From: a virus
UHGV virus genome: UHGV-0344763
Reading direction: 5' to 3' (one strand)
Length of the DNA stretch: 24,343 bases
This document shows positions 427 to 11,748 of this stretch, piece after piece. Position 1 is the stretch's first letter; the number at the start of each line of letters is the position of its first letter. The translations under genes were made by a program, and so were the position numbers. Under the pieces are notes generated by a model. The model ran no database searches, was not told the origin of the DNA, and was given only the letters and a program-made list of their open reading frames with translations.

Positions 427-933
427 ATGATGCCATTTGCTTGTTATTTCTTCATTTTCATAAACGTTGGTTTAGGAGAAGGCTCAGCATTGCCTGTTGG
501 CGTACCTGTTCCGTGGCCCTCAGCCACTCCGCCAACAGGCTGGCTAAAATGCAATGGTGCGGCTTTTTCTGCTGAAGAATACCCGGAACTGGCAAAGGTT
601 TATCCGACAAATAAATTGCCTGATTTACGCGGTGAATTTATTCGTGGCTGGGATGACGGACGTGGAGTGGATGCCGGGCGACAATTATTATCTTCACAGG
701 GGGATGCAATAAGAAATATTGAGGGATTCGCAGATGGCGGGATCGGTATGTCTTTTGATGCAATCAGAGGGGCTTTTTACGATGCAGGAACACGATCAGC
801 GAGAATGCCGAATAACACAACTACTATAGACAAAACCGATGACCTTGGATTCGACGCCTCTCGTGTCGTGCCAACAGCTAATGAAAACCGTCCACGTAAC
901 ATCGCCTTTAATTATATTGTGAGGGCTGCATAA
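427..933 (+). CDS. Alternative tail fiber C-terminal (receptor-binding) segment, silent inverted copy
   Basis: Translation contains tail-fiber tip motifs (LPVGVPVPWPSATPPTGWLKCNGAAFSAEEYPELAKVYPT); lies opposite to the expressed fiber gene inside the putative invertible segment and lacks the constant N-terminal part. Confidence 0.7.
   Translation: MMPFACYFFIFINVGLGEGSALPVGVPVPWPSATPPTGWLKCNGAAFSAEEYPELAKVYPTNKLPDLRGEFIRGWDDGRGVDAGRQLLSSQGDAIRNIEGFADGGIGMSFDAIRGAFYDAGTRSARMPNNTTTIDKTDDLGFDASRVVPTANENRPRNIAFNYIVRAA
455..482. promoter_or_regulatory. Candidate invertase crossover site (gix/hix-like), left
   Basis: ttcataaacgttggtttaggagaa matches the reverse complement of the site at ~2286-2311 in 18 of 20 core positions (aaacNttggtttNggagaag); the AAACC..GGTTT core resembles hix/gix half-sites. 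Confidence 0.55.
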
Positions 934-1526
934 TGAAACCTGTTTTTGATGAAAATGGGCTGGCTACAGTGCCGGGTGATATGCGTTGTTTTTATTATGA
1001 TGCAGTAACGTCTGAATATACGGGCTGGTCTGATGAATATATTAATACTGGCGTAAGTATGCCCGCCTGTTCCACTGGTATTGACCCGGGCGAATACATT
1101 CCGGGGAAAGTGGCAGTATTTACGGGTAAGGGATGGAGCCATGAAGAAGACCACCGCAATGAGACTGTTTACTCAACCGAAAATGGCGCAGCTGTTACAG
1201 TGGATTATATCGGTGCCATCAAAAACGGTTATGTCACGCTTTCACCGTTAACGCCATATGATAAATGGGATGGTGAGAAATGGGTGACAGATACTGAGGC
1301 ACAGCATAACGCCGCAGTAGAAGCAGCAGAAGCACAGCGCCAGTCACTGATTGATGCTGCAATGGCTTCCATCAGCCTGATTCAGCTGAAATTACAGGCC
1401 GGGCGGAAGCTGACGCAGGCAGAAACCACCCGGCTTAACGCCGTGCTTGATTACATTGACGCGGTGACGGCAACAGACACGAGCACCGCGCCGGATGTCA
1501 TCTGGCCTGAACTGCCGGAGGCGTAG
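933..1526 (+). CDS. Tail fiber assembly protein (Tfa), silent inverted copy
   Basis: 197 aa; C-terminal conserved Tfa motif DYIDAVTATDTSTAPDVIWPELPEA; start overlaps the stop of the upstream fiber segment. Confidence 0.8.
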   Translation: MKPVFDENGLATVPGDMRCFYYDAVTSEYTGWSDEYINTGVSMPACSTGIDPGEYIPGKVAVFTGKGWSHEEDHRNETVYSTENGAAVTVDYIGAIKNGYVTLSPLTPYDKWDGEKWVTDTEAQHNAAVEAAEAQRQSLIDAAMASISLIQLKLQAGRKLTQAETTRLNAVLDYIDAVTATDTSTAPDVIWPELPEA

Positions 1527-1938
1527 GCCATTCAATATCTGGAGCACCGGAAGTATCGACCAGTTCCAGTGCGTCCAGATAATCCAGCCACAAATTATAT
1601 TGCGCCAGTTCCTCACCTTTCAGACGACCAATAGCTGCTTTACCAGGCCATTGCTTACTGTTTATGTATGCGTTGGCCTTATTAATCAATTGCTGCTTTT
1701 GCAATTCCGCTGCTGCAATCTGTTCTTCATGTGTTGGTGGTGGAATATCAATCCATGCTGGCATTCCGTCGATGACACCTCTGTATTTTCCTTCTGGTAC
1801 TTCCTTCATAAATTCAGCGGCAACAGTGTCGTCAATTTCGATTCCATCATCAGGCCATTTCCCCGCTTCCTGATAAGCAATTTTAAGCTCCACAGGGAAA
1901 AACGCATTTTTATCAGCACTGAAAATATATTTCTGCAT
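1498..1938 (-). CDS. Tail fiber assembly protein (Tfa), expressed orientation
   Basis: 146 aa; C-terminal ...[26 protein letters not shown]; immediately downstream of the fiber gene; its 3-prime end converges on and overlaps the plus-strand tfa. Confidence 0.85.
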   Translation of the reverse strand: MQKYIFSADKNAFFPVELKIAYQEAGKWPDDGIEIDDTVAAEFMKEVPEGKYRGVIDGMPAWIDIPPPTHEEQIAAAELQKQQLINKANAYINSKQWPGKAAIGRLKGEELAQYNLWLDYLDALELVDTSGAPDIEWPTPPAVQAR

Positions 1939-2591: not shown

Positions 2592-3176
2592 TTACTCCGG
2601 ATATTTAAAAATTACGTAGGTATGCGACGGGCAGAGTTTGTTAAGCACACACTCGACAACGGTGTCGCCCCAGATACGCAGTGCGGAATCACAGGGATCG
2701 CCACATGTCATCCAGGTGGTGTTGGTGGCGGCTGGCATGTTGACCTGCCAGTAATACCGCCATTCCGGCGCATTCACCGCGTCAGTACAGGCCGATGAGC
2801 AGGTGAACGTGCTTTTGTCGTATCGAGTGATGGTGGCGTCTGGTCTGCCCAGGGCAGCAAGCTGTGCAAGGTAAAAATCCTCATTGATGCCGCCCGCCAG
2901 GTTAACCTTCGCATCCAGTCGTTGCTGACGCTGGCGAAGGGTCTGTGTCCCTGCGGGAATACATTCATCCGGCAGGCCGCACAGACGCTCCCAGCGATTT
3001 ATCAGTTCGGTGGTGGTGCGCGGATCCAGCTCCCGCATCAGGGCATCCGCACGCTGATGAACGCGGGTTAATGACGGTGCCGCACCGGCAATCGCCGGAT
3101 CGCTGGCTGACCACGCCGGACCGGGGGGCAACAGTGCCGACAACAGACGGATGTAATCATCGTTTGTCACGTCCAT
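2592..3176 (-). CDS. Tail/baseplate protein, Mu gp48-like (YmfQ/DUF2313-type)
   Basis: 194 aa, between baseplate J-like protein and tail fiber; family assignment by position and recollection of e14/Mu-like modules. Confidence 0.7.
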
Positions 3177-4225
3177 GAAATCGTCCCCAGTACCGCCAGT
3201 TCATTTTTTGCAATGGAGATATTGTCTGCCGGTGCAAGCAACTGATGGCTGTATTCCCCGTTCGCACCGGAAATCGCCTCACTGATACGCGACACCTTCA
3301 GTTCTCCCTGCGGATAACCATCACGCAGCAGGAACGAACGCAACTCTGCGGTGATGGCAGCCCGTATTTCCGGTGTGTCCGGTGTCACGCGGATATGAAA
3401 ATCCACTTTATGCGCCACCGGCCTGAATACATACAAATCAGAGCCTGCCACCGGGGCCAGTGGCCCGATATGTTGTCTTGCTGCCGTTTCCGTTGATTCT
3501 TCCGGAATGGGATTAATCAGGTCACTGCCGGCAATCATCACACCGACAGTCCCCGTTCCCATCCAGTGGCGGTATGTCCATGCACGGGTAATGCCGGGCA
3601 CTTCTTTAGCCCAGACAACATAGTCCCCGTCAGCCCCGCCCTGAGGCGTCCAGTAATACCGCTCAATGACGCGGGCGCGCCACGTTTCCAGATCTTCAGT
3701 ATCGAATCCGCCAGTCAGGGTATCTGCAACACCGGAAGACGGCAGACCATTCACCGGCGTGACCAGGATTAATGCCGTACCGTCGTCAGCGTTACCGACC
3801 GCGCCTGCACTTGAGCAGGCGATCGGCACGCGCAGGACACCACCGGAGCTGGTTGCATCAGCAGTTGCCGTGTACTGAACCAGGTCATCGCGCTGAATAA
3901 CACTCCCGGCGGTCACCTTCAGGCCATCGCTGACACCTTCCCAGCGCATATACCCGCTGGCAGTCGTGGCCCCCTTGCGCGGACACCGTTTCATCGCAGC
4001 ATGTCGCGCCAGCCAGGACTCATCGCACAGGTCAGGCAGCATGTTCATTGCCAGATAATCGATGTAACCGTAAACCGTATGCAGCGCCGCCGCATACACC
4101 TTTGCCCGCACGTCTTCATCCATGCGCCGGAGCGTGTCGCTGACGTCCAGCCTGGCGAATAAATCGTTACGGAGCATACTGATATTTTCTGCCAGCGTCG
4201 GGCGCTGAAATTCACTGTCCGCCAT
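3167..4225 (-). CDS. Baseplate J-like protein (Mu gp47-like)
   Basis: 352 aa; position in baseplate operon and size typical of baseplate J/gp47. Confidence 0.75.
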
Positions 4226-7649: not shown

Positions 7650-9485
7650 TTACCTGCCAAAGCGCGTATAGCCAACATCATGGCTGACATCAAAACCGCT
7701 GGATCGCGTTTCCATAACCCGCATACCCGGAGGCGAATTCACAAAAGAGACCTTGATCTCACCATCAACTTTTGGCGCAGAAGCTTTGTTAATCATGAAG
7801 GGATTCGGGCCTGTGGCACCGGAGGCGTTGTTTGACTGAGCCGGATCTACCGCCGGATAAGGTGTGTATCCCCGCGCCGGTATTCCCGCCCCATAAGCAT
7901 CATAAGCACCCGCGCCCCACTGCGCAGAGTTAATGGCATCGACCGTGTCACCGGAACTGTCGGTAAACCACTCAATAATTGGCTTCAGCTTGTCCCACAT
8001 ATCCTGAAACCACTTAACAACCGGCCCCCAGTTATTGATCACCATCCCCAGCGGCGACCAGGCAAAAACTTTCTTAAGGAGTTCCCAGCCAGCCTCAAAA
8101 TAAGGACCAATGGTTTCCCAGAGTTTCTTAAAATAAGGTCCGACAACATCCCAGTTAGTGATAATTAATCCCGCAGCCAGGGCTATCGCCGTCGCAATCA
8201 TGCCAATCGGCGTCATCGACATGATCCTGCTGACAATACTGATGGCACCGCCAACGCCCATCAATCCCAGTTTCAGAATCGCAAGACCGGCAGCAAGCCC
8301 GACGACGCCGCGAATAACCCGGGGATTTTCATCCGCAAACTTCGTGAATTTCTCCCCCACCTCCCCCAGCCATTGCGTGATATTTTTAGCGTCACCAGAA
8401 AATGCGCCGCCAATAGCCGCAAGGCCGTTAGTTGCGGTCCCTGTCATTGCCTCCCACAGGTTGGACAGCGTACCAAGCTGTGCCTGAACACGTTTATTCA
8501 GGCTGGCCTGTTTATTCATCTTCTGCTGGATCTGATCGTAGCCATCCTTTCCTTTATCGATCAGCGCATTGACCACCTGAAGGGTTTCGGCATCATCACC
8601 AAATATTGCCTTAAGTACACCAGTTCGTTTAACGTCGGTCAGTTTTCGCAGCTTTGCCAGTTGCCTGAACATGTTATCAAGACCGCCAAAACTCCCTTTG
8701 CCGTCAGTAAAATCGAGCTGTACCCCGAGTTTCTGGCGGGCCATGATTTTATTGACGTCCCTGATTTTCTTAACGCTTAATCCGGACTGGATAACTTTTC
8801 GCAGGGCGTTACCTGCCGACTCCCCGTTCATCCCCATCTGATCCATCATGACGCTGATGGGGGCAAGGCTCTGTGCAGCCTGAAGACCGTCCTTGTTCAC
8901 CATCTTCAGAACAGAACTGGTTTTAGTGAAGAAGGACAACATGTTGGTATCGTCAACGCCCAGATAAAACGCCTTCTGGATAGTGTCGAACAGCCCCATC
9001 ATGTCTTCTGACGCCGTTCCGGTAGCATCCTGCATCTTTGCGGCAAACTCGGCAGCCGCTTCCGGTGTTTTTTTCAGTTGTACCGCAAGATAAGCTGTCG
9101 CTTTACCCACACCGCCAAGAATGTTTTCTGCCGGGATCCCCTGACGCACCAGCATCTGCATCATGTTCTGAAAATCAGCCGTTGTACCGGGTAGCTGGTT
9201 ACCCAGACCAATAGCCAGTTTATTGATGTCCTGAAAGCTCTTTCCGACCTCACCGTTCGCATCCATCATGGCAACTTTCAGCCCGGTGGCGGCGTTTTCC
9301 TGATCGGCATAAGATTTCAGGGAAAGCGTCAGACCCGCTGCCAGTCCGCCACCAAGCGCCAGCCCACCCTGTGACGCTTCTTCCGCCTGGCGTTTAAATC
9401 CCCGGATTTTCTTTTGCATTTTCGACAGCGCGGGAGAAAGCCTGTCGACACCGGTGATCAACGCCTTAAGCTCAAATTCAGCCAT
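7650..9485 (-). CDS. Tail tape measure protein
   Basis: 611 aa, Ala/Gly/Leu-rich with predicted helical and hydrophobic segments; follows the frameshifted chaperone pair. Confidence 0.85.
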   Translation of the reverse strand: MAEFELKALITGVDRLSPALSKMQKKIRGFKRQAEEASQGGLALGGGLAAGLTLSLKSYADQENAATGLKVAMMDANGEVGKSFQDINKLAIGLGNQLPGTTADFQNMMQMLVRQGIPAENILGGVGKATAYLAVQLKKTPEAAAEFAAKMQDATGTASEDMMGLFDTIQKAFYLGVDDTNMLSFFTKTSSVLKMVNKDGLQAAQSLAPISVMMDQMGMNGESAGNALRKVIQSGLSVKKIRDVNKIMARQKLGVQLDFTDGKGSFGGLDNMFRQLAKLRKLTDVKRTGVLKAIFGDDAETLQVVNALIDKGKDGYDQIQQKMNKQASLNKRVQAQLGTLSNLWEAMTGTATNGLAAIGGAFSGDAKNITQWLGEVGEKFTKFADENPRVIRGVVGLAAGLAILKLGLMGVGGAISIVSRIMSMTPIGMIATAIALAAGLIITNWDVVGPYFKKLWETIGPYFEAGWELLKKVFAWSPLGMVINNWGPVVKWFQDMWDKLKPIIEWFTDSSGDTVDAINSAQWGAGAYDAYGAGIPARGYTPYPAVDPAQSNNASGATGPNPFMINKASAPKVDGEIKVSFVNSPPGMRVMETRSSGFDVSHDVGYTRFGR

Positions 9486-9896
9486 GTGTGCGTTTCTCCT
9501 GCTCTATCCTGTTTGCCTGACTGACCAGCAAGGGAATTTCACTGATCGGCATATTCAGCAATTCGAAGGGATTAATGCGCCAGTAGCTGGCGCAGTCAAA
9601 GAAGCGATCAGTGAGGTATTCAGCCGTCAGGCCTGGAGGAAAAAACCAGCCACAAGCCACGCCGCTGCATTCAGGTCTGCCGGAGACATCTGGTCGACAG
9701 AGCTTTGCGGCACTTTCGCCAGCCGCACAATGTATTTCGACACCACATGCGCCAGAAGTCTGACGGACTCATCCTGATTCATCTGGTAGGGATACCCCAG
9801 CTCGCGGACATCCTTCCCGGTGGGTTCATCAAACTCCAGTACGGAGAGTGTCTCACCATGAGCGATAATCGGTTTCTTTAACTCAAGCTCTTTCAT
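9478..9896 (-). CDS. Tail assembly chaperone, long product by programmed -1 frameshift (G/GT-like)
   Basis: ORF 9478..9660 is in the -1 frame relative to 9627..9896; heptamer T_TTT_TTC at ~9639-9645 (minus-strand sense ggT TTT TTC ctc) permits the slip; -1 frame continues FFPPGLTAEYL... Confidence 0.55.
9627..9896 (-). CDS. Tail assembly chaperone, short (zero-frame) product
   Basis: 89 aa between tail tube and tape measure; contains the slippery site near its 3-prime end. Confidence 0.7.
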   Translation of the reverse strand: MKELELKKPIIAHGETLSVLEFDEPTGKDVRELGYPYQMNQDESVRLLAHVVSKYIVRLAKVPQSSVDQMSPADLNAAAWLVAGFFLQA

Positions 9897-10252
9897 TACT
9901 GGTAATCCCCTTCTTCACCGTGGAACTCAAGATCAACCGTGCCTTCTTCGGCATTATGGTTCGCTTCTCCGTGCAGCCAGGCGGACGACAATACATAGAC
10001 CTGACCGTTCGCCAGCTCGGCAGTGATAGTCATCTCATCAGACGAGGTGATTTTGCTCACCGGAAAATTCTTCGGCACCTTGAAGGTCCCTTTGACATAA
10101 GGCGCACGGTGAGTTTCCTTGCGGTCCACTGAACCGTCCAGGCCGATGATGTCATCATTGACCGTCCTGTTCATGGGCACCTCAATGCCGCCGGTCAGCG
10201 ATAGCTGCTGACCGTCAATTTTGAAATAACAGGTTCCCCCGATACGGGCCAT
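9896..10252 (-). CDS. Tail tube protein (Mu gpM-like)
   Basis: 118 aa immediately after the sheath gene, ATGA-type overlap. Confidence 0.8.
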   Translation of the reverse strand: MARIGGTCYFKIDGQQLSLTGGIEVPMNRTVNDDIIGLDGSVDRKETHRAPYVKGTFKVPKNFPVSKITSSDEMTITAELANGQVYVLSSAWLHGEANHNAEEGTVDLEFHGEEGDYQ

Positions 10253-11748
10253 TATGCAGACTCCTCTGAATACTGAAGACGGAACTGGTTAACCACGGCA
10301 AAGACACGCAACTGGTTAACATAGTCAGGCGGGAACAGCGTGTTCAGGCGGTTCGGATCGCTGGCATCACGCTCCACAACCAGGTACTGCTTAAACAGTT
10401 CGTAGTTTTCCACGATCCCCGCACGCTCAAGCTGACGGTAGGTTGCCAGCAGTTCCCCTTTGATCACCGCCGGGGTGACAATCGCCTGACCGGGACCAAA
10501 GCGGGTACCGTCACTGGCAAGCTTGTGACGCCCGTACTTACTGGTAATGACGGATTTCAGTTTGCGCAGTACATACGCGCTGGTATGCAGAGTCTCACTG
10601 TCTAGGTAGCTGTTATCCGCAACCCCGTAAGCGTTTTTCCTGTACGTGGTGACATCACGCTGAATGCGCAGTACCCCGCTTTCGACATACGCCGTTGCCA
10701 CGCCATGAGACAGCAGGGTCTGTTGTTCGGTCATCGTGAACCGTTTCCCCTTCGGCGCAGGCAGCATACCCACCAGCTCACCGGTCTGCGTGGGACGTGC
10801 CGGATCGTTGCGAATAAACACCGCTGCGCGGGCGGTACGGCTTGCCGCCAGCTCGTCGGCAGGCGTCTGGGTCTCTTTTTCGTATCCCGCCAGGGTAATG
10901 TGCTGCTGGTTAAACTGGTCACCTGCGGTCACCAGTTCTGACAGCGTGCCGATCTTTGCCGTATACACATGACCATACAGCTGACGCGCATAGCTCCAGC
11001 GACCGCTGGTATCGTTCATCTCGGTCACCAGCGTGTTAACGGAGGCCGTGTCGTTGAACGGCAGGCCGATATAATCAAACGGCTCATCCGCCATTGCAGC
11101 CACCGCGCCGGTGAGAACAGGAGCGCCCGTTCCGGCGGTACCCGTCGCCACGGCAATCTGTACGCCCGCTGGCAGCACTTCGCCCCCACCAAAGCCGTAG
11201 TAATTGAGGCTGACAGGAATTTCATTCCCGCAAAGCCCCTTATGACGCGCGGTCAGTGTGACCACGCCTGCCGAAGATGAGGCAGTAAACGGCAGGGTCG
11301 GAACGGCATTGATGGCATCCTGGATACTGCTGGCAATCGTCGCAACGTTATCGCCGTTGGTCACCGGTGCCTGCACGCGGGTACGTCCCACATAAACATT
11401 CACCGTGCCGGTTTCGGTTGCCGCGCCGGTCACCGTCAGCGTAACCGTTGCCGCCGCGCCCGTGGATTCAGGAACGGCAATCACATACAGCTCGCCAAAC
11501 GGGTCGGTCTGGCGATAAGCCTCGACCATACGCGCCAGCTGACTTCCCGCACCACAAATCTGGCGTGCATAGTCTGCCGACGGCATCAGTACCAGACTGT
11601 TGGCAACAATCTCTGCACCGTTATTGGCATGACCAATCAGCAGCGATGCTCCGCTGTCCTGTGCAGTATTCGCCGCCTGATTATCCATTTCCGCATAAAA
11701 CAGCGGAACCAGCGTATTCGACGGAATGGTGTTAAAGCTTATCGTCAT
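10252..11748 (-). CDS. Contractile tail sheath protein (Mu gpL-like)
   Basis: 498 aa; size and operon position. Confidence 0.85.
   Translation of the reverse strand: MTISFNTIPSNTLVPLFYAEMDNQAANTAQDSGASLLIGHANNGAEIVANSLVLMPSADYARQICGAGSQLARMVEAYRQTDPFGELYVIAVPESTGAAATVTLTVTGAATETGTVNVYVGRTRVQAPVTNGDNVATIASSIQDAINAVPTLPFTASSSAGVVTLTARHKGLCGNEIPVSLNYYGFGGGEVLPAGVQIAVATGTAGTGAPVLTGAVAAMADEPFDYIGLPFNDTASVNTLVTEMNDTSGRWSYARQLYGHVYTAKIGTLSELVTAGDQFNQQHITLAGYEKETQTPADELAASRTARAAVFIRNDPARPTQTGELVGMLPAPKGKRFTMTEQQTLLSHGVATAYVESGVLRIQRDVTTYRKNAYGVADNSYLDSETLHTSAYVLRKLKSVITSKYGRHKLASDGTRFGPGQAIVTPAVIKGELLATYRQLERAGIVENYELFKQYLVVERDASDPNRLNTLFPPDYVNQLRVFAVVNQFRLQYSEESA

Follow-up and report, generated by a model that had tools for sequence, protein, structure and literature searches.

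A probable P2 E/E+E′-like programmed −1 frameshift in the tail assembly chaperone gene of an SfV-like prophage

The DNA analysed here (hereafter the window; 24,343 nucleotides of UHGV virus genome UHGV-0344763) is an E. coli/Shigella prophage resembling SfV, SfI and SfII. On its minus strand the tail genes follow one another in the order sheath, tube, chaperone, an extension running to position 9478, and tape measure (Table 1), which is the gene position of G/GT-class tail assembly chaperones. The tube gene lies directly upstream of the chaperone gene, with an ATGA overlap at the chaperone start, and 141 nt separate the chaperone stop from the tape-measure start. The 89-aa chaperone matches Pfam PF10109 (Phage_TAC_7) with E=2.4e-15 and 56.7 bits, the cutoff being 25, falls in the tail protein family phrog_166 and goes under the RefSeq name "phage tail assembly protein".

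Table 1. Coordinates of the features at the chaperone locus and its neighbouring tail genes.
Feature	Coordinates	Strand	Basis or remark
Tail sheath protein gene (contractile-tail context)	11748..10252	minus	PF04984/PF17482/PF17481; phrog_165
Tail tube protein gene	10252..9896	minus	PF10618 Tail_tube, E=2.4e-33
Zero-frame tail assembly chaperone gene, short product (gpE/gpG analogue)	9896..9627	minus	ORF, 89 aa
Second ORF, −1 frame relative to the chaperone gene	9660..9478	minus	mechanical ORF listing
Slippery heptamer T_TTT_TTC	9645..9639	minus	in phase (GGT TTT TTC)
Predicted −1-frame extension (E′/T-like domain), FFPPGLTAEYL...EKRTHG*	9645..9478	minus	translation, ~53 residues after slip
8-bp hairpin inside the extension	9594..9576	minus	44 nt 3′ of the heptamer
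Tape measure protein gene	9485..7650	minus	PF10145, E=1.3e-26

A sequence-only reading of the window had proposed that the ORFs at 9627..9896 and 9478..9660 overlap, with the downstream one in the −1 frame, and that the overlap contains a canonical X_XXY_YYZ heptamer, T_TTT_TTC, at ~9639-9645 and about four codons before the zero-frame stop. Each of these points was borne out: both ORFs are on the minus strand, a frame check places the second in −1 relative to the first, and the heptamer has the X_XXY_YYZ phase (index 251, mod 3 = 2), the minus strand reading GCT GGT TTT TTC CTC CAG GCC TGA around the site. The zero-frame TGA (9629..9627) is the fourth codon past the heptamer, three sense codons lying between them. 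A −1 slip at this site would yield a long product of 139 aa and ~15.6 kDa, complement(join(9478..9639,9639..9896)), with the predicted residues ...LVAGFF|PPGLTAEYLTDR across the slip site and the predicted fusion junction peptide ...AGFFPPGLTAEY... The −1-frame extension matches phrog_32181 (E=4e-40), and its end is overlapped by the tape-measure ATG over 8 nt (ATGGCTGA). The +1 frame of the window (locus L004) is open for just two codons beyond the stop.

An alignment with homologous chaperone pairs, which the same reading had named as a check, was made over 18 distinct bacterial genome loci (38-100% aa identity, from Enterobacteriaceae to the betaproteobacterium Derxia) and seven isolated phages (SfIV, ST64B, phiP27, BgVeeders33, DVM-2008, PBb002 and P2); these genome-contig loci and named phages were used instead of viral-contig loci, which were 100% identical to the query in 80 of 80 cases and hence uninformative on conservation. 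The slippery site is kept throughout, as an in-phase TTTTTT[C/T] in 18/18 loci and TTTTTT[C/T/G] in 7/7 phages, at the homologous G-F-F/L position. Conservation extends to the nucleotides themselves, Gly being GGT and Phe-Phe being TTT-TTY in all 18 loci, with T, C, G or A at the wobble base of the preceding Ala codon. The distance from the heptamer to the zero-frame stop varies from 3 to 14 codons across the 18 loci, and in every one of them the −1 frame is open for 41-49 codons beyond that stop. The extension reaches the tape-measure start in all 18 loci and in the seven phages, and the 8-nt overlap between the two is kept in 12 of the 18. A conserved motif, FDCA.YWR.NP...QANRI, is found in the extension, and pairwise substitutions downstream of the slip, counted by −1-frame codon position, number 2716/2199/4092, a third-position excess. 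These alignments show the −1 extension to be under purifying selection at the protein level. A tblastn search with the fusion gave two-frame matches in 23 phage records. Six full-length "fusion" proteins in the database (P0001–P0006) were judged to be assembly errors rather than natural in-frame fusions, all being singletons that carry several indels and scrambled stretches.

The extension could in principle be an independent small gene, translated from a GTG of its own five codons upstream of the slip site into a ~6.8-kDa protein beginning M-A-C-G-W-F-F, and the −1 ORF is indeed annotated as a separate hypothetical protein in one phage record and has its own PHROGs family, phrog_32181. However, a −1-frame start (ATG/GTG/TTG) upstream of the slip is absent in 11 of the 18 loci, and in those 11 the first −1 start after the slip comes at codon 28 at the earliest (≥28), past the conserved motif, leaving the extension inaccessible by initiation. 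Where an upstream start is present, it varies (GTG, ATG or TTG), and its position is set by zero-frame Trp/Leu codons. No SD-like sequence lies upstream. Moreover, conservation of the −1 frame begins exactly at the heptamer, before which stops are present and no amino acid conservation is seen, and RefSeq has apparently dropped the ORF call, as a gap in the locus tags suggests. We consider an independent gene highly improbable. Another reading would be that the 141 nt are a non-coding spacer and the heptamer mere Gly-Phe-Phe codons. Judged from the single sequence, a heptamer so near a stop is a coincidence of the order of a ~2-3% event: the 6578 codons of 26 window genes contain 11 in-phase X_XXY_YYZ heptamers, or 0.0017 per codon, and the window shows no enrichment of TTTTTTY (16 observed, 11.7 expected). 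Because the heptamer is kept in every homologue examined, however, the site stands far above chance, and with a −1 frame open in every locus, the conserved peptide motif and substitution excess noted above, slip-site codons that are synonymously frozen and a −1 stop that in every subfamily is linked to the start of the tape-measure gene, a mere coincidence is hardly conceivable.

A shift might also arise one step earlier, if RNA polymerase omitted one U at the T6 run so that a subset of the mRNAs would carry the extension in frame. Such transcriptional slippage is inseparable from translational slippage by sequence analysis alone, and the site is a homopolymer, with seven T's in SfIV, ST64B, phiP27 and the distant relative L018; slippage of this kind is documented elsewhere, on longer runs (PMC5009743). 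Efficient slippage by RNA polymerase, however, typically needs at least nine A/T, for which six-base runs are short, and in most members the run stays at exactly six bases in X_XXY_YYZ phase, with no lengthening. In the literature the shift at the homologous P2 site is described as translational (PMC3091744, citing Christie et al. 2002). We regard a transcriptional origin of the shift as very unlikely.

The gene position, the overlapping ORF without a dependable start (start-less in the −1 frame in 11/18 loci), the in-phase and conserved slippery site and the selected extension together support the type of recoding that had been proposed, namely the G/GT type of tail assembly chaperones, reportedly the class of Xu, Hendrix & Duda 2004. 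We conclude that the chaperone gene very probably undergoes a programmed −1 frameshift of this type, in its P2 E/E+E′ form. That slippage occurs, how efficient it is and what both products do in assembly are inferred, along the following lines. Most ribosomes translating the chaperone gene would stop at the TGA, giving the 89-aa product, while a minority, with tRNA-Phe in the P and A sites on U_UUU_UUC, would slip back by one base, both tRNAs re-pairing in the −1 frame on UUU UUU. The shifted ribosomes would read ~53 more codons and terminate 8 nt into the tape-measure gene, the 139-aa product thus combining the common N-terminal domain with an E′/T-like C-terminal domain. By analogy with lambda gpG/gpGT, the common N-terminal domain may coat the tape-measure protein and the rare C-terminal domain may recruit the tube protein and so start tail polymerisation, and neither chaperone product would be expected to end up in the virion. 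For lambda and P2, the short and long forms are known to be made in a set ratio, to be needed for tail assembly and to be absent from virions, and a general conservation of G/GT recoding has been reported (PMC5009743, PMC3091744). The long product of the window is probably essential for tail assembly.

Whether the slip site is accompanied by stimulatory signals was examined on both sides. In the SfV-like clade, no SD-like sequence was found within 20 nt upstream of the slip, and folds of the first 45 nt downstream were indistinguishable from those of shuffles; an adjacent downstream hairpin occurs solely in the distant relatives L018 and L023. An adjacent stimulatory element was likewise not found in P2 and its relatives (PMC3091744). 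Further downstream, inside the extension, lies the 8-bp hairpin TGCGCCAG-CTA-CTGGCGCA (Table 1). It is perfect in 13 of the 18 loci, the synonymous sites of its stem being invariant (Fisher p=0.004), and no informative covariation was detected in it across relatives. It sits within a 110-nt structured stretch (z = −4.65 in the window). This larger structure was not accepted as a property that such recoding sites have in general, its outer helices being paired in just 57–68% across relatives and the structure not being significant in SfIV, ST64B, φP27 and PBb002. An Rfam scan of 9300–10000 gave nothing close to gathering scores. The 8-bp hairpin is unlikely to be a frameshift stimulator of the classical kind. 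Conceivably, it is an RNA element under selection that acts at a distance to adjust the E:E+E′ ratio or the expression of the tape-measure gene, though we consider this unlikely; shifted ribosomes might pause at it, so that a trailing ribosome would queue near the heptamer, or it might affect how the mRNA is processed locally or how stable it is. Either route, if true, would differ from that of a classical stimulator, which is spaced 5-9 nt.

Among 5,426 complete genomes of E. coli, ~1,060 have the chaperone locus, as do the phages SfI, SfII and SfV, which convert the serotype of Shigella. Among the inspected GenBank/RefSeq records of the SfV-like lineage, none carries a joined CDS annotation; the long product is either absent, RefSeq leaving 141 nt without annotation, or wrongly called as a hypothetical protein of its own, and it is this mis-call that has given rise to phrog_32181 as a family of "unknown function". 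The long product would be restored if complement(join(9478..9639,9639..9896)) were annotated, and the main value of the finding lies in annotation; the type of recoding is a known one, and the understanding of frameshifting is unchanged by it.

The relation to lambda is one of analogy or very distant homology, not of family membership. The logic of gpG/gpGT is the same, with two products that have a common N-terminus and a coding region that lies between the major tail (tube) and tape-measure genes, and the long form of lambda arises by low-level −1 slippage, at a fixed ratio required for tail assembly (PMC5009743). However, the slippery sequence of lambda is G_GGA_AAG instead of T_TTT_TTC, its tail is non-contractile, unlike that of the window, and no lambda-type chaperone family is found among the Pfam matches of the window, nor is any sequence similarity detectable.

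The sequence-only reading had set the frameshift in a Mu-like contractile tail, which is right for the tail module (Mu Gp48-like, DNA circularisation N-terminal domain, DUF2635/gp38, sheath and tube) but not for the chaperone and its recoding, which resemble P2 E/E+E′ instead. Mu gp41 (Mup41) occupies the same place in a homologous contractile-tail module (L sheath, M tube, gp41, gp42 tape measure), and an apparent gap of ~144 nt precedes the tape-measure gene there as well. Nevertheless, gp41, of 144 aa, matches mainly PF23746 (Gp41_Mu), for which the window chaperone gives no match, and reaches 24.7 bits with PF10109, just under the cutoff of 25. It has no in-phase X_XXY_YYZ heptamer, its extension of 43 codons is in the +1/−2 frame, and Mu uses a −2 shift (PMC2628397, PMC5009743).

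The closest likeness is to P2, where the annotation of gpE+E′ places a −1 shift on TTTTTTG, in the homologous V-G-F-L position within the FETUD tail operon, and the frameshift has been reported in the literature (PMC3091744, PMC5009743). The N-terminal domain is PF10109 in both (47.8 bits for P2 E+E′ against 56.7 here), the product sizes are 91/142 aa in P2 and 89/139 aa here, and the slip sites, GGT TTT TTG and GGT TTT TTC, lie at the homologous A/V-G-F-F/L position, both in phase 2. The gene order sheath-tube-chaperone-tape measure is common to both, E+E′ and T overlap by 8 nt as do the extension and the tape-measure gene here, and both lack an adjacent stimulatory hairpin (PMC3091744 for P2). 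The differences are that the last base of the heptamer is C here and G in P2, which places Phe UUC rather than Leu UUG in the A site, that the zero-frame stop follows the site by three codons here and by six in P2, and that the remaining tail module of the window is Mu-like, not P2-like. The C-terminal part is more distant. No match to PF06528 (Phage_P2_GpE) was obtained for 12 extensions even at E≤10, the extension matches no Pfam or NCBIfam model, NCBIfam having no model for the protein of the window nor for that of P2, and a direct comparison of the fusion with P2 E+E′ by BLASTP was not significant (E=0.65), though the alignment is colinear across the slip site. On the structural side, a PDB sequence search with the chaperone profile gave no match at E≤1, and AlphaFold2 on the single-sequence fusion gave a mean pLDDT of 46, too low for the model to be of use. 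Remote similarity between the extension and P2 E′ was found by hhalign (E=4e-4, probability 35%, 42 columns), the Bordetella phage PBb002 provides a bridge from the extension to P2 (BLASTP 4e-7), and the pattern A...[FW]W..P.EL is common to the window extension and P2 E′. On these comparisons the extension is best described as a divergent E′-like domain. The window shows that a P2-type chaperone and recoding signal can stand in a Mu-like tail module instead of the −2 system of Mu, a small case of mosaicism within a tail operon.

Around the proposed slip site, the tail genes lie on the minus strand and are transcribed in the order tail sheath, tail tube, an 89-aa ORF and tape-measure protein. 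From the stop of the 89-aa ORF there are 141 nt to the tape-measure ATG, and a -1-frame ORF open to 9478 spans them. The slip-site context on the minus strand is ...GCT GGT TTT TTC CTC CAG GCC TGA, and the predicted product after the slip is a 139-aa fusion, reading ...AAWLVAGFF up to the slip and PPGLTAEYLTDRFFDCASYWRINPFELLNMPISEIPLLVSQANRIEQEKRTHG beyond it, whose stop shares 8 nt with the tape-measure start (ATGGCTGA). A sequence-only reading had proposed a programmed -1 frameshift between the ORFs 9627..9896 and 9478..9660; the minus-strand sequence, with T_TTT_TTC in phase, bears out its coordinates, frame and heptamer alike. Mechanistically, a slip back by one base would let the tRNA-Phe of the P site and that of the A site pair again on UUU UUU, as in the canonical tandem-slippage model (PMC5009743).

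Features of the tail gene region containing the frameshift site
Feature	Coordinates	Strand	Details
Tail sheath	11748..10252	minus	498 aa; Pfam Phage_sheath_1
Tail tube	10252..9896	minus	118 aa; Pfam Tail_tube
Tail assembly chaperone, zero frame	9896..9627	minus	89 aa; Pfam Phage_TAC_7 PF10109, E=2.4e-15
Slippery heptamer T_TTT_TTC	9645..9639	minus	X_XXY_YYZ phase; 3 sense codons before stop
8-bp hairpin TGCGCCAG-CTA-CTGGCGCA	9594..9576	minus	perfect palindrome inside the -1 extension
Tape-measure protein	9485..7650	minus	611 aa; Pfam PhageMin_Tail

Taken alone, the window sequence makes only a moderate case for frameshifting. TTTTTTY occurs 16 times against 11.7 expected, which is no enrichment, X_XXY_YYZ heptamers are found in phase at 0.0017 per codon (26 genes), and long -1 extensions beyond stop codons are frequent because adjacent genes overlap by ATGA. 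An in-phase A_AAA_AAT also lies at ~3203..3211 (minus strand) in the baseplate J-like gene 3167..4225, with 11 codons left to the stop, and the -1 frame at that point stays open into the gene that follows (2592..3176, Mu Gp48-like). This heptamer ends in AAT, a codon that slips poorly in the A site, and is probably there by chance, owing to the way the genes overlap. For the chaperone, it is the comparative data that decide the question of chance.

When a single genome of each species was scanned, 20 loci were obtained, 18 of them distinct, with 38–100% protein identity and spanning Shigella, Erwinia, Pantoea, Kosakonia and the betaproteobacterium Derxia gummosa. In-phase TTTTTTC is found at every scanned locus, with TTTTTTT in one lineage; the -1 frame is everywhere open for 41–49 codons beyond the zero-frame stop, which itself lies a variable 3 to 14 codons from the heptamer. 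The slippery site is kept in phase at all 18 distinct loci, as it is in isolated phages. The Gly codon preceding the slip site is GGT and Phe-Phe is TTT-TTY in 18/18 loci, while all four wobble bases (T/C/G/A) occur in the Ala codon upstream of GGT; the slip-site nucleotides are constrained beyond the protein requirement. Within the extension the motif FDCA·YWR·NP···QANRI is conserved, and pairwise differences at -1-frame codon positions 1/2/3 number 2716/2199/4092. Since the -1 frame 5′ of the heptamer contains stop codons and is not conserved, conservation starts exactly at the slip site. At all loci, the extension stop overlaps or adjoins the tape-measure start.

Isolated phages with 35–45% identity share the same architecture, namely SfIV, ST64B and φP27 (T_TTT_TTT, 21 sense codons to the zero-frame stop) and, each with 10 sense codons, BgVeeders33 and the Pseudomonas DVM-2008 tailocin cluster (both T_TTT_TTC) and Bordetella PBb002 (T_TTT_TTG). 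A tblastn search with the fusion gave a two-piece match in different frames in 23 phage records. In SfIV, ST64B and φP27 (loci L108, L109 and L110), both frames are coding over ~70 nt because the heptamer lies so far before the zero-frame stop, and the frame overlap is much longer than in the SfV or P2 types.

Translation of the small -1 ORF by independent initiation is contradicted by these comparisons: in 11/18 loci the -1 frame lacks any ATG, GTG or TTG 5′ of the slip site, and the earliest possible start 3′ of it comes no sooner than codon 28, past the conserved motif; conservation, moreover, begins at the slip site itself. That the 141 nt are a non-coding spacer with a coincidental heptamer is likewise contradicted, by the coding signature of the extension and by the fixed codons of the slip site. 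Slippage during transcription of the T6 run is unlikely, as the run is only six long and is kept at that length in most members. The locus belongs to a well-known class of recoding sites, of which it is a genuine and strongly conserved example.

As for stimulators, in the SfV-like clade no SD-like sequence was found within 20 nt upstream of the heptamer, and the first 45 nt downstream fold no differently from shuffled controls; P2 and its relatives have likewise been reported to lack an adjacent stimulator (PMC3091744). The hairpin lies 44 nt 3′ of the heptamer, a spacing too great for a classical frameshift stimulator. It codes for C-A-S-Y-W-R and is intact in 13/18 loci, some at 55% protein identity. 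In 11/11 loci of the same layout no synonymous change occurs in its codons for Cys, Ala, Tyr and Arg, whereas codons of adjoining invariant residues vary freely (0/4 stem columns with synonymous variation vs 13/15 neighbouring ones, Fisher p=0.004), and the surrounding 110 nt have a folding z=−4.65. The loci compared offer no compensatory changes for a covariation test, conservation of the predicted outer helices is poor, and the SfIV/ST64B/P27, PBb002 and P2 subfamilies do not have the hairpin. The lambda G domain is the binding partner of the tape-measure protein, the T domain brings in the major tail subunit, and frameshift efficiency sets the ratio of the two products (PMC5009743). By analogy, the short and long products may function in the same way here.

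Over the chaperone region, the window is 98–98.6% identical to SfI, SfII and SfV, which are serotype-converting phages of Shigella flexneri, and to related E. coli phages; 551 bp around the slip site were found in 1,063/5,426 complete E. coli genomes. None of the records inspected (SfI, SfV, RefSeq E. coli GE3, vB_EcoM-689R6) annotates a joined CDS. The 141 nt are left blank in the first three, and in GE3 (L107 15087..15227) the locus tags jump from RS11790 to RS11800 at the unannotated extension, suggesting that an ORF call was withdrawn. In vB_EcoM-689R6 the -1 ORF is entered as a separate hypothetical protein, and in PHROGs it forms a stand-alone family of unknown function, phrog_32181; this family and the RefSeq blank look like artefacts of the frameshift not being modelled. 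Six database proteins resembling full-length fusions (P0001-P0006) were rejected as natural in-frame fusions, being singletons with many indels and scrambled stretches around the T-run, and most likely stem from homopolymer errors in assemblies of long reads or metagenomes. The finding is useful for annotation but of low discovery value, and the SfV-like lineage may already be tabulated in Xu et al. 2004, Christie et al. 2002 or the SfV genome paper.

The tail module of the window is Mu-like (Gp48-like, DNA circularisation N-terminal domain, DUF2635/gp38). Elsewhere in the window, a Collar-domain tail-fibre ORF (427..933, plus) precedes tail-fibre assembly genes on opposite strands that overlap tail to tail (933..1526, plus; 1498..1938, minus), an arrangement like that of Mu G, e14 pin and other invertible host-range segments; in the related GE3 prophage, pinE adjoins the equivalent region. 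Unlike the window chaperone, Mu Mup41 has 144 aa, matches mainly PF23746, has no in-phase -1 heptamer and is extended in the +1/-2 frame, a -2 shift having been reported for Mu (PMC2628397, PMC5009743). In Mu (L104 3053..3617; NC_000929 23552..24116), the +1/-2 frame is open for 43 codons beyond the Mup41 stop, crosses the run CGG GGG CGA and ends just before Mup42, which fits the published shift; the RefSeq record holds the 144-aa product only.

The closest match to the window system is P2 E/E+E′, to which it is homologous. The P2 products have 91 and 142 aa (89 and 139 aa in the window), the annotated -1 shift occurs at TTTTTTG in the context GGT TTT TTG (V-G-F-L) at the homologous position, and the 8-nt overlap recurs in P2 between the extension and gene T. 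P2 E+E′ matches PF10109 and PF06528; on PF10109 it scores 47.8 bits, below the 56.7 bits of the window N-terminal domain. The window extension has no match among Pfam and NCBIfam models, and its likeness to P2 E′ is remote (hhalign E=4e-4, probability 35%, 42 columns). PBb002 bridges the two, having an N-terminal domain that matches the window protein and an extension with the FHWPPSEL of P2 (BLASTP 4e-7), and an A···[FW]W··P·EL pattern aligns across all subfamilies. Of the earlier description as G/GT-type recoding in a Mu-like tail, the G/GT type and the Mu-like tail module stand, but the recoding itself is that of P2, so that the precise description is P2-type in a Mu-like tail.
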